Shown: positions 8,142 to 25,058, counted from the first letter of the stretch. The stretch: DNA of 28,629 nucleotides from Patescibacteria group bacterium (GCA_018894075.1 JAHIEB010000039.1:1-28629); one strand, 5' to 3'. Notes: generated by a model not told the origin, from the letters alone. A program made the numbers and translations.

Positions 8142-8196
8142 CAGAGGTTCTAACTACACTTACCTGTATGCTAAATTTACGACTATTTTTACGATG

Positions 8197-8267
8197 AGCG
8201 GGTAAGGGGAGTCGAACCCCTCTCATTAGCTTGGAAAGCTAAGGTAATACCGATATACGATACCCGC
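8197..8267 (-). tRNA. tRNA-Gly(TCC)
   Basis: GCGGGTA/TACCCGC acceptor stem, TTCCAA loop, GGTTCGACTCC T arm, U73; CCA not encoded. Confidence 0.95.
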
Positions 8268-8271
8268 GCAT

Positions 8272-8343
8272 TCGGGGTGCTGGGATTCGAACCCAGACTA
8301 AACGCTCCCAAAGCGTTCGTGCTAGCCGTTACACAACACCCCG
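8272..8343 (-). tRNA. tRNA-Pro(TGG)
   Basis: CGGGGTG/CACCCCG acceptor stem, AACGC-TTTGGGA-GCGTT anticodon arm, GGTTCGAATCC. Confidence 0.95.
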
Positions 8344-8353
8344 ACATAAGGAT

Positions 8354-11861: not shown

Positions 11862-13332
11862 TAAAAAAAGAGCTCCCGTGGTAGTTGTTTTGGGCCATGT
11901 TGACCACGGCAAGTCCTCGCTTTTGGAAGCGATCAGGGATTTTGAGATTACTTCTAAAGAATCGGGGGGCATAACCCAGCATGTGGGAGCATATGAAGTG
12001 GATCATAAAGATCAAAAGATTACCTTTATTGACACCCCCGGCCACGAGGCTTTTTCTGCAATAAGGGCCAGGGGAGCCCAAGTTGCTGATATTGCCGTAC
12101 TGGTGGTGGATTCAGCCGACTCTGTCCAGCCACAAACAAAAGAGGCAATAACTGTTATCAATAAAGCCGAGATTCCTATGATTGTTGCCTTGAATAAGAT
12201 TGACAAACCAACAGCTGATCCAGAGAAGATAAAAAGAGAGCTTTCTGCCCAGAATGTTTTTGTAGAATCAATGGGAGGAAAGGTACCTAGTGTTAATATA
12301 TCAGCCAAGACCAAAGAAGGAATGAACGAACTGCTTGATTTAATACTATTAGTGGCAGATTTAGAGGCCTTAGAGGCAGATGTTGAATCTCCCGCAGAAG
12401 GAGTTGTAATAGAATCCAACACAGATAGCTTCAGGGGGCCAGCAGCAACCTTGCTTGTCCAAAAAGGCACATTGAAGATAAAAGATGTCATAGGAACAGA
12501 TACTGCCTGCGCGAAGATTAAAGGACTAGAAGATTTTCAAGGAAGGGCCATAAAGAAAGCCATTCCTTCCCAGCCCACTATTGTTTTGGGTTTTGACAAA
12601 GCTCCATGGGTTGGAGAAAAGTTTCAGACCTTTGACAGCCTAGACCAGGCTGCCGGCAACATGAAGGAAGTCAAAAGAGCCGACCTCTCTTTTTCTCTTA
12701 AAGAAGGCCAGAAAGTTTTAAACATTATCTTAAAAGCAGATGTGGTAGGGTCTTTAGAGGCCCTAGTTGAGATACTAAAGGAACTGCCTCAAGAGAAGGT
12801 AGCTTTAAGAATTTTAAAGAGCGAGATAGGGGATATTGTCGAGTCTGATACAAAAGTGGCCGAAACGTCTAAAGCCCAAATAGTGGGTTTTAGAGTGAAG
12901 GTAAACCCTGGTGTTTTACAGGCAATGAGAAAAGACAAAGAAAAGAGGGTAAAGATTAAAACTTTTGATGTGATATATAATCTGGTTCAGGAGGTCAGGC
13001 AGATGATGGAAAAAAATATAGCGCCAGAGGTTGTAAGGCAGGATATAGGGAAGATGAAGACTCTGGTGGTTTTTTGGGCAGAAGGCAGAAGACAAATCGT
13101 GGGAGGAAAAGTCTTTGAAGGAGAATTTAAAAAAGGATTAAAGCTCGAGGTCCAAAGAAATTCTGAAAAAGTAGGCGAAGGAAAGATTATAAACCTGCAG
13201 AGGAATAAAAAAGACGTGGACAGGGCCATAAAGGGAGATGAATGCGGTATTTTATTTGAAGGTTCTGTTAAAATAGAAGAAGGCGACATCATAGTTGCTT
13301 TTTCTGAAGAGAGGGTGAGAGACACTTTATGA
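11845..13332 (+). CDS. infB: Translation initiation factor IF-2 (short form, no N-terminal domain)
   Basis: GHVDHGKS, GGITQHVGAY, DTPGHEAF, NKID; C-terminal ECGI motif. Confidence 0.97.
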   Translation: MDKRNNKKRAPVVVVLGHVDHGKSSLLEAIRDFEITSKESGGITQHVGAYEVDHKDQKITFIDTPGHEAFSAIRARGAQVADIAVLVVDSADSVQPQTKEAITVINKAEIPMIVALNKIDKPTADPEKIKRELSAQNVFVESMGGKVPSVNISAKTKEGMNELLDLILLVADLEALEADVESPAEGVVIESNTDSFRGPAATLLVQKGTLKIKDVIGTDTACAKIKGLEDFQGRAIKKAIPSQPTIVLGFDKAPWVGEKFQTFDSLDQAAGNMKEVKRADLSFSLKEGQKVLNIILKADVVGSLEALVEILKELPQEKVALRILKSEIGDIVESDTKVAETSKAQIVGFRVKVNPGVLQAMRKDKEKRVKIKTFDVIYNLVQEVRQMMEKNIAPEVVRQDIGKMKTLVVFWAEGRRQIVGGKVFEGEFKKGLKLEVQRNSEKVGEGKIINLQRNKKDVDRAIKGDECGILFEGSVKIEEGDIIVAFSEERVRDTL

Positions 13333-13673
13333 GCAAAAAAGTAGAAAAGGTAAATTCTCTGATTCAAAGAGAGCTTGGGAGCATACTCTTAAAGGATGTT
13401 GAGTTCCCGCAAGGGTCTTTGGTCACTATTACCAGGGTTGAGACCTCAATAGATTTAATCAATGCCAGGGTATATATTTCTGTCCTGCCCCAGGAAGGAG
13501 CAAAAAGAGTATTAGAGATTTTAGGAAAGCTCGTTTTCTTTTTACAGAAAAGAATAAATAAGAGGCTTAAAATGAGGCCTATACCGAAGATACGGTTTAT
13601 TGAGGAAAAAGAGACTGGCAAAGCCGCCAGGATAGAAAGCATTTTAGAGGATATAAGGAATCAAGAAGGTTGA
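13329..13673 (+). CDS. rbfA: 30S ribosome-binding factor RbfA
   Basis: Follows infB; VTITRVETS.DL..ARVYISV and MRPIPKIRF motifs. Confidence 0.93.
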   Translation: MSKKVEKVNSLIQRELGSILLKDVEFPQGSLVTITRVETSIDLINARVYISVLPQEGAKRVLEILGKLVFFLQKRINKRLKMRPIPKIRFIEEKETGKAARIESILEDIRNQEG

Positions 13674-13697: not shown

Positions 13698-14498
13698 ATG
13701 TTTTCTTTGGACCCTCGAGGGGGGCATAATCGATATAATTTTAAGATCGATTTCTTTGAAAAGTGGACGCCGGAGATGGCCTATGTTTTAGGCTTTTTAT
13801 ATGCAGATGGGTATATTGAAGATGCGGGAAAATCATCAAGGACTCAATATATATCTTTTGGCAGCAAAGACAAAGAGATTATCGAGTTAATAAGATCGGT
13901 ATTAGGATCTAAGCACATAATAAATTATAGAATTCCTAGCAAGGTTTTTTTCCCTGGCGGAAAAACGTATAAATGTGCCGAATTCTATAAATTAAGGATC
14001 GGCAGTAAGAAATGGTTCAGAGATCTTTTGCGGTTAGGGCTTGTCCCAAAAAAATCACTAATAATAAAATTCCCAAATAACATCCCCGATAAATATTTCG
14101 GACATTTCGTCCGAGGATACTTTGACGGAGATGGATGTGTCACTATTAAAAGAGGCAGGGGCGCAAGAGGGCAGACGATTCTAAAGGGAGTAGCCGTCAT
14201 TTTTACTAGCGGGAGCAGACTCTTTTTAGAGGGGTTAAGGAACCGGGCGCATCAAATTGTTGGTTTTAGGAAAAGGATTGTTTATTACGGTAGCCGTAGC
14301 AGGGCATGCTATTTGAAATATAATACGGCCGAAAGCGTGAGATGGTTCCAACTTTTTTATGGCGATTGCTTCAACCTATTTTTAAAAAGAAAATATAATG
14401 TCTTCCAAAAATACTTTCAATTGCGCCCAGTTAGGATTGACAAAGAGACAGCAAAGATATTGAATAAAGGATCATGGCCAGGTATCCAAGTAGTTTAA
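13698..14498 (+). CDS. Free-standing two-motif LAGLIDADG endonuclease-like protein; last 23 nt overlap tRNA-Cys
   Basis: AYVLGFLYADGYI and HFVRGYFDGDGCV motifs, LGLVPKKSL linker, FTSGS. Confidence 0.88.
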   Translation: MFSLDPRGGHNRYNFKIDFFEKWTPEMAYVLGFLYADGYIEDAGKSSRTQYISFGSKDKEIIELIRSVLGSKHIINYRIPSKVFFPGGKTYKCAEFYKLRIGSKKWFRDLLRLGLVPKKSLIIKFPNNIPDKYFGHFVRGYFDGDGCVTIKRGRGARGQTILKGVAVIFTSGSRLFLEGLRNRAHQIVGFRKRIVYYGSRSRACYLKYNTAESVRWFQLFYGDCFNLFLKRKYNVFQKYFQLRPVRIDKETAKILNKGSWPGIQVV

Positions 14499-14549
14499 GG
14501 AGACGGTCTGCAAAACCGTTATACGCGGGTGCAATTCCCGCCCTGGCCT
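14476..14549 (+). tRNA. tRNA-Cys(GCA)
   Basis: GGCCAGG/CCTGGCC acceptor stem, ACGGT-CTGCAAA-ACCGT, U73, T-loop TGCAATT. Confidence 0.93.
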
Positions 14550-14556
14550 CAAGTTT

Positions 14557-14639
14557 GCCCGGATGGCGGAATGGCATACGCACAACACTTAAAATGTTGC
14601 GAGGTTTTCCTCATGCGAGTTCGACTCTCGCTCCGGGCA
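14557..14639 (+). tRNA. tRNA-Leu(TAA)
   Basis: GCCCGGA/TCCGGGC acceptor stem, CAACA-CTTAAAA-TGTTG, long variable arm. Confidence 0.95.
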
Positions 14640-14706
14640 CACGCGTTTTTAACTATTTTTGTTCATAAATTTTCTCGATTTTGGCAAAAACAAGTCACGA
14701 GTCGAG

Positions 14707-14732
14707 CCACCTTTTGATTGAGGTGGTTTTTA
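14707..14732 (+). repeat. Copy 1 of a 26-nt hairpin repeat (terminator-like)
   Basis: CCACCTTTTGATTGAGGTGGTTTTTA; 24/26 identical to 20077-20102. Confidence 0.7.
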
Positions 14733-14853
14733 TTTACCGAAAATCCCTTGCTCTGCAATTAAAACATGAGGGGCTGTGGTGTGGGGATATTATTTCTCAA
14801 GAAAGTTTTACATAAGCGGAAATAATCTGATTAAATTTTTAACTATGCAAACG

Positions 14854-14880
14854 AAAAGCCCGAGGCACCCCGGGCTTTTT
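14854..14880. terminator. Bidirectional terminator-like hairpin
   Basis: AAAAGCCCG-AGGCACCC-CGGGCTTTTT. Confidence 0.7.
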
Positions 14881-14955
14881 GATTTTACAATGATTATCTT
14901 GGGCTGAAATTATCAAAATAATCTTTAAAATATTTAATCACCCCCCCCCTTTTCG

Positions 14956-15645
14956 TCAGCGGGTATTTTTTCGGGTTCTTTTTTCTTTTAAGTCTAACAC
15001 CCCCCTAATCCCCGCTGAATCGACTCTGTCTTTCTTATTTAATTCCGCAATTTCTTCTTTTGATAATCTACTATCCGATCCGCTTCTGTCTTTATCGGTC
15101 GATGCCCCTATGCGTCTTTGTTTTTCGGCGAACAAAGCATCCCTAACGGCTCTCTGCTCATCCCATTGATTTTTCATCTCCGGAGTCATTCTTTTCCCAA
15201 GCCTTGCTTTAGTTTGTAGTACGCCCTCAATATATTTAAGTGCATCGTCAACTCCTTCCACTTCTGGTCTGTCTGCACCTAAAACAATATTCTCTATCGC
15301 AAGAGCAGATCTTTTATCTCCCCTTTTACCCGATTCAGACAATGCTTTTGCATATCCAATAATAGCACCCTTTGCTTCTGAAAAACTTAATGGCGTAGCG
15401 CCATTTTTATCCCTTTCGGCCAGATTTGCCTCAACGACTATTTCTCTAACCGCATCGTGCCAAAAACCATTTTTCTCCAGAATACATTGTCCAGCGTCAT
15501 ATCTTTCGTTAGCAAAATCATAACCAGCTTCGCTTAATGCCTTGTGATTTTGTGGCTGCTTAACTCTGTCTAAAACACCCTGCATTTTAAGAGCAATTTC
15601 TTCGCTTTTATGTTGCTCCGAAGAGCTTGTTTCTGGTGATTGCAT
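14956..15645 (-). CDS. Hypothetical charged helical protein (229 aa)
   Basis: Long ORF with AT-rich upstream region; no recognised family. Confidence 0.75.
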   Translation of the reverse strand: MQSPETSSSEQHKSEEIALKMQGVLDRVKQPQNHKALSEAGYDFANERYDAGQCILEKNGFWHDAVREIVVEANLAERDKNGATPLSFSEAKGAIIGYAKALSESGKRGDKRSALAIENIVLGADRPEVEGVDDALKYIEGVLQTKARLGKRMTPEMKNQWDEQRAVRDALFAEKQRRIGASTDKDRSGSDSRLSKEEIAELNKKDRVDSAGIRGVLDLKEKRTRKNTR

Positions 15646-15970
15646 ATTTTTTATTTTCTTTAATAATTTATGACAACTTTTTCAACTGATTCTTCTTGCA
15701 TTAATAGCAGCTAAAGCCCTTATTAAAATAATGACCGAAGGCTGGCACATTACCGAATATTCCCAACATTGTTTTAGTAATTAAGGTGTCACTCGGATTA
15801 TTTTTTTCTCCCAACGCAACGCCCAGCAAATAAATCAATAACATTTTTCTTATTTATTTTTCCATAATAACCATTTAGTTTTTACTTGATCTTAAAATTT
15901 ATCAAGTTATTTTTTATATTTTACTCTAAAATCAAGAAAAAGCAAAGTCGTAAAAAACCTATAATCAACA

Positions 15971-15998
15971 TTGAAAAATATCAAAATCTTAATATAAT
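15971..15998 (+). promoter_or_regulatory. Sigma70-type promoter
   Basis: TTGAAA, 16 nt, TATAAT. Confidence 0.55.
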
Positions 15999-16012
15999 TT
16001 AACCAAAATTAA

Positions 16013-16234
16013 AGAAAATTTAAAAGAGAAGTAGCAAAGTTTAACGAAAGAACCCGGGAACTCATCCAGCTTATAGAAAGATCAATATCTATTACGGAAT
16101 GTTTAGAAGTAGAATGGAAAAAACGGTTGGATAGAGACGAAGATTTTTACACTGACAAGGATAAAAATTTAAGTGTTTTCAGTTGGAAAAATTGGGAGCT
16201 CTCAAGACAAGAATGGATTGTACCTACAATATAA
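16013..16234 (+). pseudogene. Start-less 73-codon open frame, probable gene remnant
   Basis: RKFKREVAKFNERTRELIQLIERS...RQEWIVPTI*; in-frame TAA immediately upstream and no 5' ATG. Confidence 0.35.
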
Positions 16235-16288
16235 CCAATTCCTTCAGTTTATTCGTAACTACTTACTTAATAGAAGGAAGCCGAGGCA
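16212..16288. repeat. Copy A of a structured non-coding repeat of about 77 nt
   Basis: First 67 nt are 57/67 identical to 18943-19009; shared CGAGGCA tail. Confidence 0.85.
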
Positions 16289-16308
16289 AAGTAACAGTAG
16301 ATTAAAAC

Positions 16309-16343
16309 AAGCAACCCCCCCCTTTAATTTTTGGTGGCTTTTT
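16309..16343 (+). terminator. Degenerate CCACC/GGTGG-family hairpin plus T run
   Basis: AAGCAACC-(C)n-TTTAATTTTT-GGTGGCTTTTT. Confidence 0.45.
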
Positions 16344-16359
16344 GATAGAGTAAATCAAT

Positions 16360-17139
16360 ATGGACAACCAAAAAATATTTAATCAACAATATAAAAATCC
16401 TTCAAATTTTGTCAAACGGAGAGTATCACACGAAAAGTTTAGCACTAATAAATACAACTGGTACAAATATGTATTTGACCATTTTAATTTTTCTGCAAGG
16501 TGCAAAATTTTGGAACTCGGCTCGGGCTTAGGGACATTATGGCTCAATAATCAAGAAAGAATCCAGAAGGATTAGGATATTACATTATCTGATTCTTTCC
16601 AAGAAATATTAGATAAAGTGAAGGAAAATCTTAAGGAAGTAAACCATCCATTTAATTTTCAGCTGATAAGTGCTGAAAATATACCATACTCAGACGCTAC
16701 TTTTGATGGGGTAATTGCAAATGGCTTGCTTTATCTTGTCTCTGATTTAGAAAAAACGATAAAAGAAATAGCGCGTGTGATTAAATTTGGGGGAATGCTG
16801 ATTGCTTCAACCAGCGGTAGTAAATATATGAAAGAAGTAGAAGATTTAATTATAAAAACTGACCTTCCTATTCATAGAAATTATACTAAGCATTCTTTTT
16901 CTTTAGATAATGGGAAAGAATCACTTTCTCAAAATTTTTCCAGGGTTGAGGTTTTCCGTAAAGGAGATTCTTTATTAGTCACCGAAGCCGAGCCGCTTGC
17001 CGAGCATATTTTATCCACCAATGAAAATTTAAGCGAAGAACAAGTAAAACAGGTGCGTGTTTTTTTTGACGAATATTTTAAGAAAAATAAGCAGTTAAAA
17101 TTTACAATAGATACGGGCTTATGTATCGGAAAAAAATAA
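16360..17139 (+). pseudogene. Class I SAM-dependent methyltransferase interrupted by one in-frame TAG (16573-16575)
   Basis: ILELGSGLG motif I; the frame continues QKD*DITLSD..IPYSDATFDGVIAN; the two ORF-track pieces share one frame. Confidence 0.85.
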
Positions 17140-17168
17140 ATAAGGAGGTAATAAAATTTAATTAAAAT

Positions 17169-18203
17169 ATGGCAGAAAATATTGAATCTCGCTTAGGCTC
17201 CGAAGAGCCAGAAACCCCGGATCAAAAGAAGTTCCGAGAAGAACTGGGAGAGATGGCCGAAAAGGCAAGGCAAGAAGCAGCCGAAAGCCCCAAGCAGGAG
17301 GGGCTGGATTTGGCTGAATTAACAAAAAAAGAAAAAAAAGACCTTAAGCGCTGGCGTTCAGAGCAACAAAAAGGCGAAGTAGAGACAACTCCAAAAGATG
17401 TCCTGCCAGAAAATCCGGATTTAAAAAAACTTATGACTGCGGTAAAAAAGGGGGTCAAGAGAGCGAGAAGAGAAATAGCAAAAAACCCAAAAAAAGGGGG
17501 CTTGGACCTAGCAGAGGGGGAAGACGCAGAAAAGAAATGGAGAGAAGCCGAGAGAGAGGTCTCCCCAGAGTTTATTGAGGCGCTAGAGAAAACGCCACTT
17601 GGTCCAGAAAACCAGGTTTGGATTTTACTTACTAAGGCTGGATTAAAACCGGCGTCCTGGCTTGATAAAGATATTAAAAGAACGGAGCATGGAAAAGTAA
17701 CAGAGTTTTTAAAGAATGAAGAAGTCCACCAACTTGTTTCTTTTTTAGAAGCCTTTTTTCCTTGCGTAGTTGAGAAAAAAACCGTTGATATAGTAAAAAA
17801 TAGACGAGGAATTTGGGTTGGTGTCCCGTCCGAAAAAGGACGCAAAATCGGCGAGGAAGAAAGGTTGGATTTTATCATAGGTAGCAACAAAGAAAATTTA
17901 GAGAAAATTGTTTCAGCACTTGAGGCGAAAGATGATAGGAAAATTGGATTAGCACTTGGTTTTGAGCCGACGGCGGTAGAAGCTTTTTGCGGGAAAGGGA
18001 AACTTGTAGATAATGAGAAATTGCCAGACGAAGCTTTGTTTAGTGAGGCATTTGTATTTAGTCCCAGCAGGCTTTCGGCCGATAATTGGCTGAAAGAACT
18101 GGCCCAACATCAAAAATGGGCAGATTACGTAAAAAAAACAAGCCCAAGTCTGTTTAACAGAATGATGGGTTTTCAAAAAGAGGTAAAAAAAGAGGCAAAA
18201 TAA
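17169..18203 (+). CDS. Hypothetical protein (344 aa): charged, repetitive N-half and globular C-half (AGLKPA...LGFEPTAVEAF)
   Basis: Long ORF with plausible composition; family not confidently named. Confidence 0.8.
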   Translation: MAENIESRLGSEEPETPDQKKFREELGEMAEKARQEAAESPKQEGLDLAELTKKEKKDLKRWRSEQQKGEVETTPKDVLPENPDLKKLMTAVKKGVKRARREIAKNPKKGGLDLAEGEDAEKKWREAEREVSPEFIEALEKTPLGPENQVWILLTKAGLKPASWLDKDIKRTEHGKVTEFLKNEEVHQLVSFLEAFFPCVVEKKTVDIVKNRRGIWVGVPSEKGRKIGEEERLDFIIGSNKENLEKIVSALEAKDDRKIGLALGFEPTAVEAFCGKGKLVDNEKLPDEALFSEAFVFSPSRLSADNWLKELAQHQKWADYVKKTSPSLFNRMMGFQKEVKKEAK

Positions 18204-18227
18204 AAATACATTAATCAATTTTTATAT

Positions 18228-18646
18228 ATGAAATCTGAAGATTATAAAAATCTATTAACCGAAGACGAAAAAATTATAAAACCCTTTGTGCCGGAGTCTC
18301 TTTTGAGACGTTTATTTTATTTCCTTAGAAAAAGAGTAGCGCTTATCATAACCAATAAAAAGATAATATATAGGGGAAACTTTGGATATTCAGATAAAAA
18401 TATTAAGATTGAAGAAATAAGTGATGTATTCTTAACAAATGAGTCTTCTGCGGCGGTTCTGGTTGCTAAATCCTTGGAAATTCTAAAAAAGGGAGCACCC
18501 CCTATTGATATTCTGTTTTAGGAGAATTAATCTCAAATGACGTTATGGCCCCTATTTATGAAGGTTCTATATCTGTAGGGTGGTTGTCGGGGTCACAAAA
18601 AGTTGAGGCCCTATCAATGATAAAAAAACTCGTAGGCCAAAAATAA
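18228..18646 (+). pseudogene. Frameshifted gene, possibly bacterial PH-domain-like
   Basis: Frame 1 stops at TAG 18519-18521; the -1 frame continues LGELISNDVMAPIYEGSISVGW...KLVGQK* to 18646; the break is in a T4 run. Confidence 0.55.
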
Positions 18647-18742
18647 TAATTAGCAACAGCGAAAGGTAGAGTTTAGCATCTTTATCTGTCCGTAATCCGC
18701 TATTATATTGATTCCAATGTTGCCTGCTACGCCGTGCCCTTT

Positions 18743-18767
18743 CCCGAGATTAATTTCTCGGGTTTTT
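18743..18767 (+). terminator. Intrinsic terminator
   Basis: CCCGAGA-TTAATT-TCTCGGG-TTTTT. Confidence 0.8.
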
Positions 18768-18784
18768 ATTGTATAATAGAAAAA

Positions 18785-18939
18785 ATGAAAAAAGTTTTCC
18801 TATTATTTATAATCCCATTATTATTCCCACTTCTGTTTTGGCTGAACAAATAGACATTAACACTGCTATATTGCCACAATTGGACGAATTAACCGGCATT
18901 GGACCAACTTACCCTCTCCCGAAGGAGAGGATGCCCTGA
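18785..18939 (+). pseudogene. ComEA-type helix-hairpin-helix DNA-binding protein remnant (frameshifted and truncated)
   Basis: Signal peptide MKKVFLLFIIPLLFP, 1-nt loss near 18827, then TSVLAEQIDINTAILPQLDELTGIGPT; similarity ends at 18909. Confidence 0.7.
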
Positions 18940-18942
18940 ATA

Positions 18943-19018
18943 AATGGATTGTATCCACAATACAACTAATTCCTTCAGTTTATTCATAACTGCCTACTTG
19001 GCAGAAGGACACGAGGCA
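18943..19018. repeat. Copy B of the structured non-coding repeat
   Basis: See copy A; compensatory changes in the CTGCC-TACTT-GGCAG stem. Confidence 0.85.
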
Positions 19019-19042
19019 GAAACGCTGAACCTATAGAGAGTA

Positions 19043-19096
19043 AAGCCACCTTTTTCCGCCTCCGCTAGTTGGCGGATTGTGGATGAAGTGGGTTTT
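19043..19096. repeat. AAGCCAC...GTGGGTTTT hairpin enclosing a TCCGCC...GGCGGA palindrome (REP-like)
   Basis: TCCGCC-TCCGCTAGTT-GGCGGA at 19055-19076. Confidence 0.45.
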
Positions 19097-19113
19097 GATT
19101 TGTAAATTTGGGC

Positions 19114-19142
19114 TTGACATAAATTTATTTAAATGATATACT
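19114..19142 (+). promoter_or_regulatory. Near-consensus sigma70 promoter
   Basis: TTGACA, 17 nt, TATACT with TGn. Confidence 0.8.
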
Positions 19143-19188
19143 TAAAAAGGTAGAAATATTATAGACCCCAACTCAAAGGAGACTTCAC

Positions 19189-19491
19189 GTGGGAACCTAC
19201 TACAATCCCGGTACAGAAGTGCAAACTGTGGGCCGCAAACTTAATGACAAGGGCCCAGACGGCTCGGACTACGAAAAGCTAATGGCCCAACTACAGGAAG
19301 GAGAAGTGCTATTCGGCGTAGTGGATGTGTTCGTGGCAGAGAGAAATCCTGTGCGCGCTATGCACATTCAGTCGCAGGATGACCTTACAGGCACTTGGCG
19401 GGCCCATTGGCAAGGTTATTACAAGATACTGGGCTTCTATGCAGTGCCGCGGACGAAGGCCGAACAAGGATGCGGGAGTAGACTGCCATAA
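19189..19491 (+). CDS. Hypothetical protein (100 aa), GC-rich, GTG start
   Basis: AAGGAG SD, own promoter and terminator. Confidence 0.75.
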   Translation: MGTYYNPGTEVQTVGRKLNDKGPDGSDYEKLMAQLQEGEVLFGVVDVFVAERNPVRAMHIQSQDDLTGTWRAHWQGYYKILGFYAVPRTKAEQGCGSRLP

Positions 19492-19527
19492 TTATCTCGC
19501 CCGGTTCGGCAACGTTTTACCTCGCAT

Positions 19528-19557
19528 AGCCCTACACAATCGTGTGGGGCTTCTTTT
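19528..19557 (+). terminator. Intrinsic terminator
   Basis: AGCCCTACAC-AATC-GTGTGGGGCT-TCTTTT. Confidence 0.75.
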
Positions 19558-19614
19558 GTACATAAATTCTGATATGATTTATAAATACTATTAAACAATC
19601 GAGTTATAAAATTT

Positions 19615-20007
19615 ATGTCAAATATTTTGAAGGCTCCTAAAAAATCAATAATATACGAAGATGAATTGTTGTATGTCTGCCTGGCAAAAGAACCGATTGT
19701 TATCGGCCACACTATCGTTGTTTTCAAGCAGGATGTTTCTGATTTGAGCAAACTGTCGGACAGAGATTATGATTATCTGATGGACACGGTTTTTGCCACC
19801 AGAAACGCTCTAATAAAAACTTTGAATGTCAAAAAGGTTTATCTACTTTATATGGACGAAACAAAACACGTGCACTGGCATTTAGTTCCGAGGTATAAAG
19901 AGAGAGGATTTGGTGTTTTTAAAAAAGAAGTTACCGTAATAAAAGATTTCTCTTTGGCTCACAAAATTCACAAGAATCTAATATTTATTCGCGACCAAAG
20001 ATTTTAA
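19615..20007 (+). CDS. HIT family protein
   Basis: GHTIVV and HVHWHLVPR histidine triad. Confidence 0.9.
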   Translation: MSNILKAPKKSIIYEDELLYVCLAKEPIVIGHTIVVFKQDVSDLSKLSDRDYDYLMDTVFATRNALIKTLNVKKVYLLYMDETKHVHWHLVPRYKERGFGVFKKEVTVIKDFSLAHKIHKNLIFIRDQRF

Positions 20008-20076
20008 ATCAGGATTTTAAGTATATCCCAACCTGGTTCCAATTAAGTCGCACCACCGGAGCTATGTTTTTAAAAC

Positions 20077-20102
20077 CCACCTTTTAATTGTGGTGGTTTT
20101 TA
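20077..20102 (+). repeat. Copy 2 of the 26-nt hairpin repeat
   Basis: CCACCTTTTAATTGTGGTGGTTTTTA. Confidence 0.7.
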
Positions 20103-20210
20103 AATTAAGCAAAACCTAACCGCTTGATCTCCTTTAGTCTTTCCTTCAATCCGGCTATATATTCCCTGTCCTCAAAAAGTATAATAAGATTTAGACTTGA
20201 GCACATAACT

Positions 20211-20236
20211 AAAAACTCCCCGCAAGGGGAGCTTTT
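20211..20236. terminator. Terminator at the end of the 3D-domain gene
   Basis: AAAAA-CTCCCC-GCAA-GGGGAG-CTTTT. Confidence 0.75.
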
Positions 20237-20723
20237 AGTCTTCTAAAACTTCAATATACACAATATCTGCGCCGAAGTTCTTGGCTTCTTTAGTGCTGTC
20301 CATCCAGATATCCAAATGATAGTCTCCCTTTCTCTTATTCATTCTATCCTGTACGGTGAACACTTTGTTTCCATACAAGCTTGGGATTCTAACTTTGGTT
20401 CCGAATGAAAGCAAGTTGTTGGCAACTATTCCGTCTCTGACAGTTTGGCCAGAGGCGGTAATAAATGGGGTAGAGTCTGTTTGCTCAACAGTGCTTGAGT
20501 AAGCAGTCACAACCATTTTAATCCGTTTTGCCACTTTGTAAGAATCAGCTGGATTTGTCTGCAAGATGGTGTTTTCCTGTGCAGTGGATATATTAGAGTT
20601 TTGAGGAGCAATCAGATCTGCTCTAGTGCCTGTAGGCAGGAAGATTTCAATGCTTCCTGTGGCTAAAACCGTCACCATTAACAAGCTTCCAAGGGCTCTC
20701 TTTAAGTGCAGTTTTATAGTCAT
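20235..20723 (-). CDS. Secreted 3D (Asp-Asp-Asp) domain protein, putative cell-wall lytic transglycosylase
   Basis: Signal-like N-terminus, VTAYSS..QTDSTPFITASG, TVQDRM, HLDIWM, FG motifs. Confidence 0.9.
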   Translation of the reverse strand: MTIKLHLKRALGSLLMVTVLATGSIEIFLPTGTRADLIAPQNSNISTAQENTILQTNPADSYKVAKRIKMVVTAYSSTVEQTDSTPFITASGQTVRDGIVANNLLSFGTKVRIPSLYGNKVFTVQDRMNKRKGDYHLDIWMDSTKEAKNFGADIVYIEVLED

Positions 20724-20757
20724 ATAATTTAAAAACCCCTTTCGGAGTTATGCAACC

Positions 20758-20786
20758 ATAATAGCATATTATATCGTCCCTGTCAA
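20758..20786 (-). promoter_or_regulatory. Promoter for the 3D-domain gene
   Basis: Minus strand TTGACA, 17 nt, TATTAT with TGn. Confidence 0.75.
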
Positions 20787-20821
20787 GGATTATACAATGC
20801 TGTCTCTCTTTTGTCAAATTT

Positions 20822-20896
20822 TGGAGCGGGAGACGGGATTCGCACCCGCGATCTTCTCGTTGGCAACGAGACATTCTACTGCTGAACTACTCCCGC
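20822..20896 (-). tRNA. tRNA-Gly(GCC)
   Basis: GCGGGAG/CTCCCGC acceptor stem, TTGCCAA loop, T-loop TGCGAAT, encoded CCA. Confidence 0.95.
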
Positions 20897-20899
20897 ATC

Positions 20900-20975
20900 T
20901 GGTGCCGTGGGCCGGATGTGCGCCGGCCACCTCTTCTTTTTCAGAGAAGCGCTCTGCTACCTGAGCTACCACGGC
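20900..20975 (-). tRNA. tRNA-Phe(GAA) with aberrant T-loop
   Basis: GCCGTGG/CCACGGC acceptor stem, CTTCT-CTGAAAA-AGAAG, T arm GCCGG-CGCACAT-CCGGC, encoded CCA. Confidence 0.88.
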
Positions 20976-20999
20976 ATATTCTTATTATACCCCATATAG

Positions 21000-21072
21000 T
21001 GGACGATGCAGGACTCGAACCTGCAACCCTACGGATGTAAACCGTATGCTCTGCCAATTGAGCTAATCGTCC
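21000..21072 (-). tRNA. tRNA-Val(TAC)
   Basis: GGACGAT/ATCGTCC acceptor stem, TACGG-TTTACAT-CCGTA. Confidence 0.95.
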
Positions 21073-21074
21073 AT

Positions 21075-21158
21075 TGGTGCGCGGGAGAGGAGTCGAACCT
21101 CCATGCCTTGCGGCGCTACCACCTCAAGGTAGTGCGTATGCCATTTCGCCACCCGCGC
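21075..21158 (-). tRNA. tRNA-Leu(GAG)
   Basis: GCGCGGG/CCCGCGC acceptor stem, CTACC-TTGAGGT-GGTAG, variable arm, encoded CCA. Confidence 0.95.
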
Positions 21159-21165
21159 ACATAAT

Positions 21166-21579
21166 CTATTGAGCCTCTTCTACTGCCGGTGGCTCTTCTG
21201 GCTGTTCCTCTGGAGCGGCAACAGCTGCCAAATCATCCCCTCTCTTCAGCTTGGCCCTTTTTCCCTTAGCCGTTCTTAAGTAGTATAATTTGGCTCTTTT
21301 CACCTTTCCTTTTCTGACCACCTCTATTTTTGCAATAGCAGGAGAGTGGAGCGGAAATATTCTTTCTACTCCCACTCCAGAAATCACCTTTCTGACAGTG
21401 ATGGTGGCAGATGCCCCTTTACCGTGCTTTCTAGCCAGAACTACTCCCTCAAAGACCTGCACTCTTTCTTTATCTCCCTCTTTGATTTTCTGGTGAACTT
21501 TAATAGTATCTCCAGGCGTTATTTCAGGAAGGTCTGTCTTTAATTGCGACTCGTTGAAGCTGTCTAAGAATTTACTCAT
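21166..21579 (-). CDS. rplS: 50S ribosomal protein L19
   Basis: [41 protein letters not shown]. Confidence 0.98.
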
Positions 21580-22264
21580 ATTTTTTTAATTCTTTTAATA
21601 CGTTTTTTAAATCTTCCGGCAACTTTGATTCAAACTCTTTTGTTTGGCCGTCCGGGAGTTGAATCTTCAAATAGCAAGCGTGTAGAAAATGATGAGTCAG
21701 GTTTTTGGGAACAGGCTGTCTTTTGAACGCATAGAGCTTGTCTCCTGCCATCGGGTACTTGATATATTCTAGGTGGCACCTTATCTGGTGCTTTCTTCCG
21801 GTCTTTGGATAAAGCTCCAGCAGGGTATATCCCTGATATCTTTCAACAACCCTGTACTCGGTAATTGCCTGCCTTTTGTTTTCAGAGCCAGGTTCTGCTA
21901 TAAAAAAAGCTCTTTGCTTTTTTCCGTCTTTAGGGGATCTGCCGATTAGAGTTTCAATCGTCCCTCCATCTTGCTTGATAACCCCTGTTGATAAGGCAAT
22001 GTACTTCTTTTCTACCCTTCTATTTTTAAACTGTTTTTGCAAAAAAATCAAGGACTCGTTGTTCTTAGCTACAATTAATAGCCCAGAGGTGTCTTTGTCT
22101 AACCTGTGGACTATGCCATATCTGGGAGCTTCTCCTGCCTGCTTTAATTCAGGATAATCCTTTAAAAGGATGTTTATCAGGCTGTTTTCGTCCCCATAGA
22201 CAGAAATGCCGGCTGGCTTGTCTATTACCAACAGATTATTGTCTTGATAGATTATTATATCCAT
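21572..22264 (-). CDS. RluA/RluD family pseudouridine synthase (no S4 domain)
   Basis: [16 protein letters not shown] catalytic motif, [17 protein letters not shown]. Confidence 0.93.
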
Positions 22265-22266
22265 TG

Positions 22267-22340
22267 TGGGCGTATCCCGACTCGAACGGGAGACCTCGTC
22301 GATGTCAACGACGCGCTCTAACCAACTGAGCTATACGCCC
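22267..22340 (-). tRNA. tRNA-Val(GAC)
   Basis: GGGCGTA/TACGCCC acceptor stem, CGTCG-TTGACAT-CGACG. Confidence 0.95.
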
Positions 22341-22343
22341 TTC

Positions 22344-22419
22344 TGGTGGGCCCGGATGGAGTCGAACCATCCACCTATTGTTTATAAGACAATTGTTCTA
22401 ACCGCTGAACTACGGGCCC
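22344..22419 (-). tRNA. tRNA-Ile(TAT)
   Basis: GGGCCCG/CGGGCCC acceptor stem, ATTGT-CTTATAA-ACAAT anticodon arm, GGTTCGACTCC, A73, encoded CCA. Confidence 0.9.
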
Positions 22420-23076
22420 ATATTTCTCCGAAATAGCTTTTATCGCCATTAGTATCTTCTCTGATAATCTAGCATTTCCTATGCCAAGCGTGCAAGTTCC
22501 ATGCCCAAAACGGCCCTTGTGGTTTATATTATACGAGAAAGTGTTTTTGATATATGGTTTGATAAATTGCGTGGTTGGCACTCCTATCACCTCTGACCAA
22601 AAAGAAATTTCTTTATTTATATCCATGTCGCTGTATAGATGGAGTTGAACATGAAATTTCTGTTTAGGAACTTTGAGAGATTTCATCAACCAAAGAGCAA
22701 AGAATTTAATTATCGAAGGATCTGTGTTTGATAGATAAAGCGACGAATTAGCAGTTTTAAGACCTTCACCCCAATAAAGAAAGACGCCCGCCATATAAAG
22801 CTCCTTATTAGTAAAAGGAAATAATTTTCTTTTCTCGTTATTTAAACAATAGTTCAGTCTGACTTCTTTCTTCTTCCGTTTTGTTTCTCTGCACCTTTCA
22901 ATTCTAATCTGGCTATTATCTCGGAGCTCCCTTATCCTCGCCTCAGGAAGGGGATAAGATTTTAGCCAGGAGCTAAGCGTGCTTTTACTGACATGAATGG
23001 CTTGTTTTATTTGGCTGTAGCTCATTCCTTGCTCGCGTAGATTTAGAGCTTTATTTTTTAGATCAAAATATGCCAT
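22375..23076 (-). CDS. HTH plus single-motif LAGLIDADG-like protein; last 45 nt overlap tRNA-Ile
   Basis: LNLREQGMSYSQIKQAIHVSKSTLSSWLK (HTH); AGVFLYWGEG motif followed by LYLSNTDPSII. Confidence 0.75.
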   Translation of the reverse strand: MAYFDLKNKALNLREQGMSYSQIKQAIHVSKSTLSSWLKSYPLPEARIRELRDNSQIRIERCRETKRKKKEVRLNYCLNNEKRKLFPFTNKELYMAGVFLYWGEGLKTANSSLYLSNTDPSIIKFFALWLMKSLKVPKQKFHVQLHLYSDMDINKEISFWSEVIGVPTTQFIKPYIKNTFSYNINHKGRFGHGTCTLGIGNARLSEKILMAIKAISEKYGPVVQRLEQLSYKQ

Positions 23077-23149: not shown

Positions 23150-24976
23150 TTATCCCTTTTTTATAATTTTTTCAAACTCCTCTCTTTCAATCGTTTCTTT
23201 TTCCATTAAAGTTTTGGCCAGCTTGTCTAGGAGTTTTCTCTTTTTGGTTAAGATACTAGTCGCTTGTTTTTCAGCTGATCGGATGAATTTATCAACCTCA
23301 CCGTCAATTTCAGAGGCTACTTTTTCAGAATAGTTTCTCTGCTCTGAAATCTCTCTTCCCAAAAAGACCATATCGTCTTTCTCTCCGAATGAGACAGGCC
23401 CCAAGGCAGACATCCCGTATTCTTTAACCAACTTTCTGGCCAAGTCAGACGCCCTTATTAAGTCGTTTGAAGCTCCTGTCGTTATCTCCTTAAAAGCCAG
23501 CCTCTCTGCGCTGTACCCACCCAATAGCGTGGCCATTTCAGCCAAGAATTCTGTTTTTGACTTGATTCTCTTTTCTTCAGAGGGCATTTGCAGGGTGTAT
23601 CCTGCTGCCATTCCCCTGGCGATAATAGATATCTTTCTTATTGGTTCAGATCCGAAGAAGGAGGAGGAAACTAAGGCGTGGCCCGCTTCGTGGATAGCTG
23701 CAATACCCTTTTCTTTTTTAGACAAGATATGGCTTTTTCTCTCCGGCCCAAGCAGCACTTTTTCAATTGCTTCTAAAAACTCAGGCTGGTTTATCTGGGT
23801 TTTGTTTTTTCTGGCGGCCATTAAAGCGGCTTCATTGGCAATGTTGGCTAAATCAGCTCCTGAAAACCCGGGAGTCCTTTCTGCTATCTCTCTTAAATTA
23901 ACGTCAGAGCCCATGGGTTTTTGCTTTGAATGTATTTTCAATATATCTTCTCTGTCACGGACATCCGGAGGGTCTAAAACTATCTTTCGGTCAAACCTGC
24001 CGGGCCTCAATAAGGCAGGATCTAAAATATCTCCTCTGTTAGTCGCTGCCATAACAATGACATTGTTTTCTCTCTCAAACCCGTCCATTTCAACTAATAT
24101 CTGATTTAGGGTTTGTTCTCTTTCATCGTGTCCTCCTCCTATGCCTGCCCCTCTGTGCCTGCCGATAGCGTCCAGCTCATCAATAAAGATAATTGCCGGA
24201 GAATGTTTTTTAGCTGTTTGAAACAAGTCTCTTACCCTGGCAGATCCCACTCCCACGAACATCTCAACGAACTCTGACCCTGAAATAGAGAAGAAAGGGA
24301 CATTGGCTTCTCCTGCTACAGCCCTGGCCAGCAAGGTTTTCCCAATGCCGGCTGAGCCCAAAAGAAGAACTCCTCTTGGGATTTTAGCTCCCATAGCTAG
24401 ATATTTCTTTGGGGATTTTAAAAAGTCAACAATTTCTATCAGTTCTTCTTTGGCTTCCTTTAACCCGGCCACGTCTGTAAAAAAGATTTTGTCTTTTGAT
24501 TTTCCCTCTGTGCCGAATAAGCGCGCTCTTGATTTTGTGAAGTCAAAGGTCTGCATGGCTCCGCCTTTTGTCTGCTTAAATATCATCCAGAAAAAGATTC
24601 CAAAAACTAAGAGAGGGAGAATGCCGAAGATTAAAATAGGGGAAAGCCAGGACCAGACGCTTGGGCTGGGAGTTTTTACCTCTGCCTCAATCGAGCTAAG
24701 CTTTTCGGGATCTGCTCCAAGTTCAGTCAGATTCTGGACATAAGAGACGCCGGTTTCTTTTTCAGAAACAGACTTCTTGCTATCCTTGTAAACAATATCT
24801 AGAACATCGCCGCTTACTGTTATTTTTGAAACTTTATCCTGATTGATGTCTGATACAAGCTGGGTTATAGGTATGATGGGGACCTCCTCGGAAGGAAGAT
24901 AGCTTATACTGAATAGGCCACCCAGCACCAAAAAGATAACGATTATTATGACGAAATTCTTAAGGAATGGATTCAT
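23150..24976 (-). CDS. ftsH: ATP-dependent zinc metalloprotease FtsH
   Basis: Two TM helices, Walker A GSAGIGKT, Walker [24 protein letters not shown]; start MNPFLKN. Confidence 0.97.
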
Positions 24977-25029
24977 ATGTTTAATAACTAATAGAATAGC
25001 AGAAAAACAGGTCCTTTGCAACTTAGCTA

Positions 25030-25058
25030 TTGACAAAAGTTGAAACATTTGCTATTAT
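25030..25058 (+). promoter_or_regulatory. Sigma70-type promoter for the GC-rich hypothetical gene
   Basis: TTGACA, 17 nt, TATTAT with TGn. Confidence 0.75.

Follow-up and report, generated by a model that had tools for sequence, protein, structure and literature searches.

On the usual view, homing endonucleases can hide within a conserved gene only by means of an intron or an intein. A 28,629-nucleotide (nt) stretch of DNA from a Patescibacteria group bacterium (GCA_018894075.1, JAHIEB010000039.1:1-28629; hereafter the window) carries two open reading frames (ORFs) with features of the LAGLIDADG superfamily, and raises the question of whether the edge of a transfer RNA (tRNA) gene can serve the same end. 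ORF1 lies directly upstream of tRNA-Cys and ORF2 directly upstream of tRNA-Ile(UAU), each on the same strand as its tRNA and with its stop codon within it. We consider it likely, with a probability of roughly two in three, that both are free-standing homing-endonuclease genes for which tRNA gene boundaries are the landing sites.

The placement of the ORFs had been pointed out in a preliminary description of the window, and the coordinates bear it out. ARAGORN and Infernal/Rfam likewise agree with its statement that the two tRNAs are intact and without an intron. That description had joined the two ORFs in one candidate system; they are instead independent elements of one kind and do not cooperate.

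Adjacency to tRNA genes in two protein families

ORF1 and ORF2 belong to families A and B, respectively. Matches to both families were collected from 61 genomes (this one and 60 relatives at the level of genus, family, or order), and the surroundings of each match were inspected. It was found that 94 of the 100 intact copies adjoined a tRNA, with 80 ending between -45 and +57 nt of the 5' end of a tRNA on the same strand (negative values lie inside the tRNA). Family A contributed 36 intact copies, 25 of which ended from -45 to +20 nt of such a 5' end, while eight began 0 to 13 nt past the 3' end of a tRNA and three were without a nearby tRNA. For family B, 55 of the 64 intact copies ended from -45 to +57 nt of a same-strand 5' end and six followed a tRNA; two of the three exceptions lie beside group I introns. 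An even set of 150 genomes sampled from the phylum, nearly all from other orders, held 47 family-B matches in 29 genomes. Forty of these were fetched, and 36 ended from -51 to +35 nt of a same-strand tRNA, the other four following one. When both sets were combined, 116 of 140 copies were adjacent on the 5' side and 134 of 140 had tRNA contact of any kind. The preliminary description had allowed that such adjacency might be no commoner than among other genes, but only 17 of the 543 other crude gene calls in this genome (approximately 3%) sit in this way.

More than 25 different tRNA sites are used. Family A was matched in 30 of the 61 genomes and family B in 36, with zero to five copies per genome, each at a different tRNA. 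Orthologues of ORF1 hold the same site in four other genomes, and tRNA-Ile(UAU) is tied to one family-B lineage in seven of the 61 genomes (this one and six relatives). A third gene in this genome, the ORF2 paralogue L003 (contig C78, 470-1240, minus strand), shares 33% identity with ORF2 and has an extra N-terminal helix-turn-helix (HTH) region; all three genes adjoin a same-strand tRNA. L003 fills the spacer between tRNA-Tyr and tRNA-Thr(GGU), with its ATG directly after the discriminator base of tRNA-Tyr, its stop codon 8 nt before tRNA-Thr, and rpmG downstream.

Group I introns (Rfam RF00028, 58 to 99 bits) were detected beside family-B genes at three loci where ARAGORN called no tRNA (L049, 2108-2424; L094, 630-880; L120, 193-438). 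These introns probably lie in intron-containing tRNAs that ARAGORN cannot call, and because they probably mark such tRNAs, some family-B lineages probably adjoin an intron without residing in it. The family-B gene at L116 (1497-3227) departs from the usual arrangement in that its 3' end runs into a tRNA-Gln of the other strand.

The two ORFs differ in architecture, as had been remarked from the DNA. ORF1, which has the canonical two domains of a LAGLIDADG protein, was matched by Pfam LAGLIDADG_3 (PF14528) at 45.6 bits (cut-off, 22.5) and, among PDB sequences, by the archaeal enzyme I-Tsp061I (2dch; E value, 6.8e-5). It has the motifs YADG and FDGDG, and D37, G38, and D143 to G146 are invariant in 29 family-A sequences; both LAGLIDADG acidic positions and lysine K119 are likewise invariant in the 29 relatives. 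In Pfam, ORF2 met weak HTH models only and had no LAGLIDADG match. An AlphaFold model of ORF2 built on 55 relatives (predicted local distance difference test score [pLDDT], 94) consists of a three-helix HTH (residues 1 to 42), a single helix of 40 residues, and a C-terminal alpha/beta domain. Residues ~79 to 226 matched AFDB clusters named LAGLIDADG/DOD homing endonuclease with E values of 1.5e-13 to 1e-11, template modeling (TM) scores by hit of 0.75 to 0.88, and root mean square deviations of 2.0 to 2.4 Å. In an exhaustive VIA-align search with residues 88 to 223, LAGLIDADG domains ranked top (Z scores of 7.6 for an intein endonuclease domain, 6.8 for I-DmoI, 6.4 for E-DreI, and 5.6 to 6.3 for WhiA), and a Foldseek search of the model against PDB gave unrelated weak matches only. 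As modeled, the C-terminal domain of ORF2 has the alpha-beta-beta-alpha-beta-beta-alpha fold of LAGLIDADG proteins. Its motif LYWGEG carries an acidic residue; across 55 sequences, conservation of E104 is 90% or higher, and G105 does not vary. An hhalign comparison of family B with family A was not significant (probability, 0.5%), and no homology between them at the sequence level is claimed. The ratio of nonsynonymous to synonymous substitution rates (dN/dS) between intact pairs was 0.08 to 0.24, with dS near saturation.

Family B comprises 11,005 representative clusters at an E value of 0.001 or better, annotated publicly as "helix-turn-helix domain-containing protein," "predicted transcriptional regulator," or "hypothetical." A tblastn search of 50,697 phage records with ORF2 returned no match at an E value of 1e-5. 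For this contig, the public protein collection holds only a version of ORF2 of 139 amino acids (aa) (P0004; 100% identity over 60% of the query), and because it is so short the deposited gene call seems to start at an internal Met. Some family-B proteins (P0123 to P0125, P0127, and P0128, of 504 to 576 aa, and that encoded at L116) contain two or three full profile copies per reading frame. Elsewhere in the genome, a 134-aa fragment matching the C-terminal half of LAGLIDADG_1 at 25 bits (contig C18, ~14941-15345, minus strand; L007, 1381-1785) lies directly downstream of an XerC/D-like integrase gene, with no adjoining tRNA or Rfam RNA.

Vacant sites, site-specific lineages, and gene context

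Occupied and empty versions of the same site, at a precise position between conserved flanks, were found for rbfA/tRNA-Cys, for ftsH/tRNA-Ile, and for eight tRNA-tRNA sites. The distance from the rbfA stop codon to tRNA-Cys is 16 to 92 nt in 10 genomes and 802 to 824 nt in five (this one and four others). From the ftsH stop codon to tRNA-Ile(UAU) it is 16 or 87 nt in two genomes with an empty site, 730 to 762 nt in six with an occupied site, and 661 nt in one with a decayed copy. The eight tRNA-tRNA spacers are bimodal in length, at either 1 to 40 nt or 650 to 980 nt, and intermediates of 70 to 520 nt include recognizable fragments. ORF-less alleles of the kind envisaged in the preliminary description are thus present among relatives in conserved synteny, and the window itself holds empty versions of at least six sites that are filled in relatives. 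Seven copies are decayed by interruption or truncation (L011, L038, L044, L067, L068, L098, and L099). A cassette that brings its own replacement tRNA end was also considered and rejected, as no repeat of tRNA sequence that would represent a duplicated tRNA 5' stub was found upstream of either ORF.

The trees of both families resolve every site as a single supported clade. Eleven changes of site label, the minimum possible, sufficed for family A, and family B required 20, against a minimum of 16 and a mean of 50 for shuffled labels. The Leu GAG, CAG, UAG, and CAA sites cluster in the tree, and the Ile(UAU) and Ile(GAU) lineages are sisters. Because sites at isoacceptor tRNAs are neighbors in this way, the tree suggests that the tRNA gene sequence is part of the recognized target and that new sites are reached by small shifts in specificity.

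The histories of the genes and of their surroundings may differ. Homologues of ORF1 share 69% identity with it in another genus, 61% in another family, and 55% in an interrupted copy from its own genus, whereas identities of infB and rbfA, compared without a species tree, follow the opposite order. In two genomes of different families (G025, locus L008; G046, locus L009), tRNA-Cys is 100% identical and the endonuclease genes are 77% identical at the DNA level. The shared block stops at the 3' end of tRNA-Cys, and tRNA-Leu(UAA), 17 to 18 nt downstream, is only 67% identical. An identical tRNA-Cys beside so divergent a tRNA-Leu hints that the tRNA travels with the endonuclease gene.

Two candidate signatures of the insertion site were rejected. 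The junctions remarked upon in the preliminary description do read AT/GGCC and AT/GGGCC in the window, but AT/GG(G)CC is not conserved in homologues or in empty sites; it reflects an AT-rich spacer followed by a G-rich acceptor stem. A diagnostic base in tRNA-Cys was also sought, and position 10 is not G in occupied alleles; however, two unoccupied alleles are likewise.

The features discussed are listed in Table 1. The genome (528 kb, 41 tRNAs) yields proteome matches that name Parcubacteria-type lineages. ARAGORN found 14 tRNA genes in the window, all of them full-length by Infernal/Rfam. ORF1 begins 24 nt past the rbfA stop codon in the order infB-rbfA-ORF1-tRNA-Cys-tRNA-Leu(UAA)-hairpin, and ORF2 begins 73 nt past ftsH in the order ftsH-ORF2-tRNA-Ile(UAU)-tRNA-Val(GAC)-pseudouridine synthase-rplS-four tRNAs.

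TABLE 1 Locations of the ORFs, tRNA genes, and other features (window coordinates unless a contig is named)
Feature	Location	Strand	Remarks
ORF1	13698-14498	+	266 aa; two-motif (monomeric-type) LAGLIDADG homing-endonuclease gene (putative), family A, tRNA-Cys lineage
ORF2	22375-23076	-	233 aa; HTH, long helix, and single domain of predicted LAGLIDADG fold, family B, tRNA-Ile(UAU) lineage
tRNA-Cys(GCA)	14476-14550	+	ARAGORN; Infernal/Rfam, 61.8 bits, full-length; first 23 nt are the last codons and stop of ORF1
tRNA-Ile(UAU)	22344-22419	-	ARAGORN; Infernal/Rfam, 72.3 bits, full-length; first 45 nt are the last 14 codons and stop of ORF2
tRNA-Leu(UAA)	14557-14640	+	ARAGORN
Cys-Leu spacer	14551-14556	+	6 nt; empty site; relatives hold a family-A gene here or directly 3' of tRNA-Leu
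tRNA-Val(GAC)	22266-22340	-	ARAGORN; 3-nt Ile-Val spacer empty here, family-B gene in four relatives
tRNA-Leu(GAG)-Val(UAC)-Phe-Gly(GCC) cluster	20822-21158	-	Short spacers; all four positions empty here, family A or B in relatives
tRNA-Pro(UGG)-tRNA-Gly(UCC) pair	8196-8344	-	3-nt spacer empty here; family-B gene in relatives
rbfA	13329-13673	+	Conserved upstream flank of ORF1 (infB-rbfA synteny)
ftsH	23150-25048	-	Conserved upstream flank of ORF2
Terminator-like hairpin	14704-14729	+	Consensus scan only; closes the rbfA-ORF1-tRNA-Cys-tRNA-Leu string
Ordinary gene	Contig C47, 4553-4858	+	Ends 10 nt inside tRNA-Thr(UGU)
Ordinary gene	Contig C62, 12794-13216	-	Ends 10 nt inside tRNA-Thr(CGU)
Ordinary gene	Contig C62, 13277-13666	-	Ends 21 nt inside tRNA-Gly(CCC)
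Ordinary gene	Contig C6, 980-1432	-	Ends 1 nt inside tRNA-Ala(CGC)

Promoter and terminator scans gave counts of promoter-like strings that were not above those in shuffled sequence. A TTGACA-17 nt-TTGAAT string at 14431-14465 (plus strand), within the 3' end of ORF1, fails the criteria of the promoter scan; it lies at the same distance from tRNA-Cys as promoter-like TTGAAA/TAAAAT strings do in empty sites and may be a retained or relict tRNA promoter inside the ORF1 coding sequence. The tRNA-Ile(UAU) gene encodes its CCA. The genome has only two CAU tRNAs, both on contig C13, and a genome-wide search for the TilS family (PF01171) gave no match above the cut-off (best, 21 bits for a 335-aa ORF on contig C61). 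Because a tRNA-Ile with a UAU anticodon and two CAU tRNAs are present and PF01171 is not matched above the cut-off, AUA is probably read without lysidine.

Proposed mechanism and alternative explanations

The two families have radiated in a phylum of ultra-small bacteria and have split into many site-specific lineages, each wedged, in the orientation of the tRNA, into a spacer of a few bases at the edge of one particular tRNA. The usual place is the 5' edge, and sometimes the position between two tRNAs or just 3' of one. According to the proposed mechanism, the enzyme would cut an unoccupied allele at or near the tRNA boundary, and repair from an occupied allele would insert a copy of the gene and, in some cases, of the adjacent tRNA as well. 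tRNA genes would be good targets because their sequence is conserved. The inserted genes would be co-transcribed with the tRNAs, and ribonuclease P (RNase P) and the 3' processing enzymes would excise the tRNA and so release the message. Since a tRNA would be cut out of any precursor, insertion into a spacer would cost the host nothing, and neither a self-splicing intron nor an intein would be needed. Extreme compaction would bring the reading frame as far as the tRNA edge or beyond it, and a frame entering the tRNA would use the first in-frame stop, very often the conserved U8-A9-G10 as TAG. Free-standing homing endonucleases on tRNA 5' boundaries were one of two alternatives in the preliminary description, and they fit the adjacency, the polymorphism of empty and occupied sites, the site clades, the catalytic residues, and the decayed copies.

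At five family-A loci (L013, L017, L018, L020, and L021) and at L003, start codons lie 0 to 6 nt past the 3' end of the preceding tRNA. Because so small a gap excludes a Shine-Dalgarno or other ribosome-binding site, processing of the tRNA 3' end could leave a leaderless or almost leaderless mRNA at such loci.

The position of the stop codons invites a further explanation, in line with the non-stop mRNA suggested in the preliminary description, which would add to homing rather than replace it: the overlap might be a selected control, whereby the RNase P cut yields a non-stop mRNA, couples the amount of protein to tRNA maturation, and exposes any excess to tagging by transfer-messenger RNA (tmRNA). 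ORF1 ends in SWPGIQVV, and its TAA (14496-14498) occupies positions 21 to 23 of tRNA-Cys; ORF2 ends in YGPVVQRLEQLSYKQ, and its TAG occupies positions 43 to 45 of tRNA-Ile, the anticodon TAT being decoded as a Tyr codon. The stops thus lie 23 and 45 nt inside the tRNAs, and genes for RNase P RNA (113 bits) and tmRNA (149 bits) are present in the genome, so that the prerequisites of such coupling exist. Of the 116 copies adjoining a tRNA 5' end, 62 stop inside the tRNA, and among the family-B copies that read into it 31 of 50 stop exactly at positions 8 to 10, where one-third would be expected for a random frame. This excess could stem from RNase P coupling, from selection for the shortest tail, or from shared ancestry; selection against long junk tails would give the same excess, and related copies are not independent. 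The orthologues of ORF2 have eight more bases before the tRNA and stop at U8-A9-G10, read as TAG, after 224 residues, which is the commonest length among close public homologues and that of L027, L028, L030, and L032. The 15-codon tail of ORF2 is peculiar to this genome; an 8-nt deletion relative to the orthologues shifts the frame so that the ORF continues to the next stop.

Against a role in control, the stop codon precedes the tRNA in the remaining 54 of the 116 copies, and its position differs even within site clades (-23, +4, -18, and +1 for Cys; -45, -10 in four copies, +5, and +13 for Ile[UAU]). Four ordinary genes of this genome, namely a small ORF located after tsf and the genes for two coiled-coil proteins (one of them small and membrane-anchored) and for a membrane protein, also stop 1 to 21 nt inside tRNAs (Table 1), and other gaps between genes and tRNAs are mostly 0 to 9 nt. 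The overlap is therefore a property of a compact genome, a frequent consequence of tight packing rather than a trait that defines these genes, and selected non-stop control appears doubtful. The real signal is docking, not overlap. Termination inside the tRNA, which the preliminary description had treated as a hallmark, cannot be upheld as such, and the opposite pattern, in which homologues normally stop before the tRNA, holds for only about half of them.

The main rival to homing, somewhat less probable still and in our judgment unlikely, is domestication: ORF1 and ORF2 would be DNA- or RNA-binding proteins that the host retains as WhiA-like or maturase-like local regulators or helpers of the tRNA operon, with adjacency reflecting co-regulation rather than mobility. 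Copies are mostly intact, with low dN/dS at saturated dS, and are strictly co-oriented with the tRNA; a few lie beside group I introns. The HTH and long helix of family B resemble those of DNA-binding regulators, the public labels say as much, and WhiA is among the structural matches of ORF2. However, a host function sits poorly with the patchy distribution of both families, with copy numbers that vary from zero to five at different tRNAs, and with the fact that in most relatives the tRNA in question functions in the absence of the gene. The catalytic acidic residues, which WhiA is generally known to have lost, are kept in both families; decayed copies exist; and gene identities are incongruent with those of flanking host genes. 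The same features tell against the WhiA-like regulator that the preliminary description had offered as its second alternative. That long ORFs run into tRNAs by accident of chance or annotation in an AT-rich, gene-dense genome has next to no probability, even though other ORFs here overlap tRNA 5' ends, since both ORFs have thousands of homologues with conserved domains under purifying selection and tRNA contact is nearly universal among them (134 of 140 copies).

Several observations weigh against homing endonucleases at tRNA boundaries. Approximately 93% of copies are intact, and purifying selection on them is strong at saturated dS; a role that benefits the host would account for this no less well than continual reinvasion. 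Family B has no significant LAGLIDADG profile match by sequence in Pfam or hhalign, and that its members are nucleases is an assumption based on a single conserved Glu and the predicted fold. The 5' parts of the tRNAs in occupied alleles vary considerably, so that the target cannot be read from them. Copies in related genomes are not independent, and the counts therefore overstate the statistics. Finally, four random metagenomic contigs carrying members of the wider family, two of them very short, gave mixed results. The arrangement was canonical in one; in a second the gene and a tRNA were convergent, in a third the gene adjoined a group I intron, and the fourth was uninformative. The phylum sample is a better test than these.

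Should homing at tRNA boundaries be correct, the tRNA-gene edge would be an apparent third hiding place, used on a large scale in bacterial chromosomes, where the tRNA-cutting enzymes of the host remove the cost of insertion. If the activity is real, it would explain the large length differences of tRNA clusters in reduced genomes, provide a route for horizontal exchange of tRNA alleles, re-annotate more than 10,000 protein clusters that currently carry the label "HTH domain protein" or "hypothetical," and make available numerous small DNA-recognition scaffolds that have diversified naturally and whose targets are known approximately. The tRNA overlap is also a simple, naturally occurring case in which to examine how translation and RNase P compete on one transcript. 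A bolder version, which we hold only tentatively, is that tRNA processing acts as the equivalent of splicing for a phylum-wide LAGLIDADG radiation in tRNA-operon spacers. RNase P and 3' processing would both free the mRNA and silence the insertion, non-stop transcripts would possibly throttle expression, and neighboring tRNA alleles would be dragged along, spreading and homogenizing, among ultra-small bacteria, tRNAs that include the unusual AUA-reading tRNA-Ile(UAU).

Comparison with known systems

The nearest parallel in behavior is SegB of phage T4, a free-standing GIY-YIG endonuclease within a phage tRNA cluster and a case of "intronless homing" (PMC2330249). Its site includes a conserved tRNA motif (the T-psi-C arm), and it spreads with neighboring tRNA genes and is absent from that place in related genomes (PMC2330249). 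The elements described here resemble SegB in being free-standing genes among tRNA genes whose position is empty in related genomes. As putative endonuclease genes, they differ from it in having a LAGLIDADG fold (predicted for ORF2), in residing in bacterial chromosomes, in forming at least 25 site-specific lineages, and in lying so close to the tRNA 5' end that only a few bases intervene or, often, the two overlap. Neither ORF has a GIY-YIG or HNH catalytic domain, and both are SegB-like in behavior without being members of the Seg/Mob families.

In the candidate phyla radiation (CPR), LAGLIDADG genes have been described inside rRNA insertions and introns (PMC11270868, PMC11809585), and the first of these reports nowhere mentions tRNA. 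Those enzymes share with ORF1 and ORF2 the superfamily, the host phylum, and targets in highly conserved structural-RNA genes. Unlike them, with their location inside the RNA gene and their need for removal of the insertion, the genes reported here lie outside mature, uninterrupted tRNAs. Relationships to archaeal enzymes were also evident, as ORF1 matches I-Tsp061I by sequence and the C-terminal domain of ORF2 matches I-DmoI by predicted fold.

Free-standing LAGLIDADG ORFs are found between genes in compact fungal mitochondrial and algal chloroplast genomes, where transcripts are punctuated by tRNAs. ORF1 and ORF2 are likewise intergenic genes in a compact genome, although one that is not organellar, and a regular docking on the 5' edge of particular tRNAs, one lineage per site and with shared stop codons, is not known to us from organelles. 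WhiA, a domesticated regulator encoded by a conserved single-copy gene, has its HTH at the C terminus, behind two degenerate LAGLIDADG domains, and has lost the catalytic acidic residues. ORF2 similarly joins a predicted LAGLIDADG fold to an HTH, in line with the structural match noted above, but its HTH is N-terminal, it has one domain, its acidic residue is kept, and its distribution is patchy and multicopy; neither ORF is a conserved single-copy syntenic gene with lost acidic residues. A full-text literature search, most subscription journals being outside its coverage, turned up no account of endonuclease genes docked on tRNAs in these bacteria.

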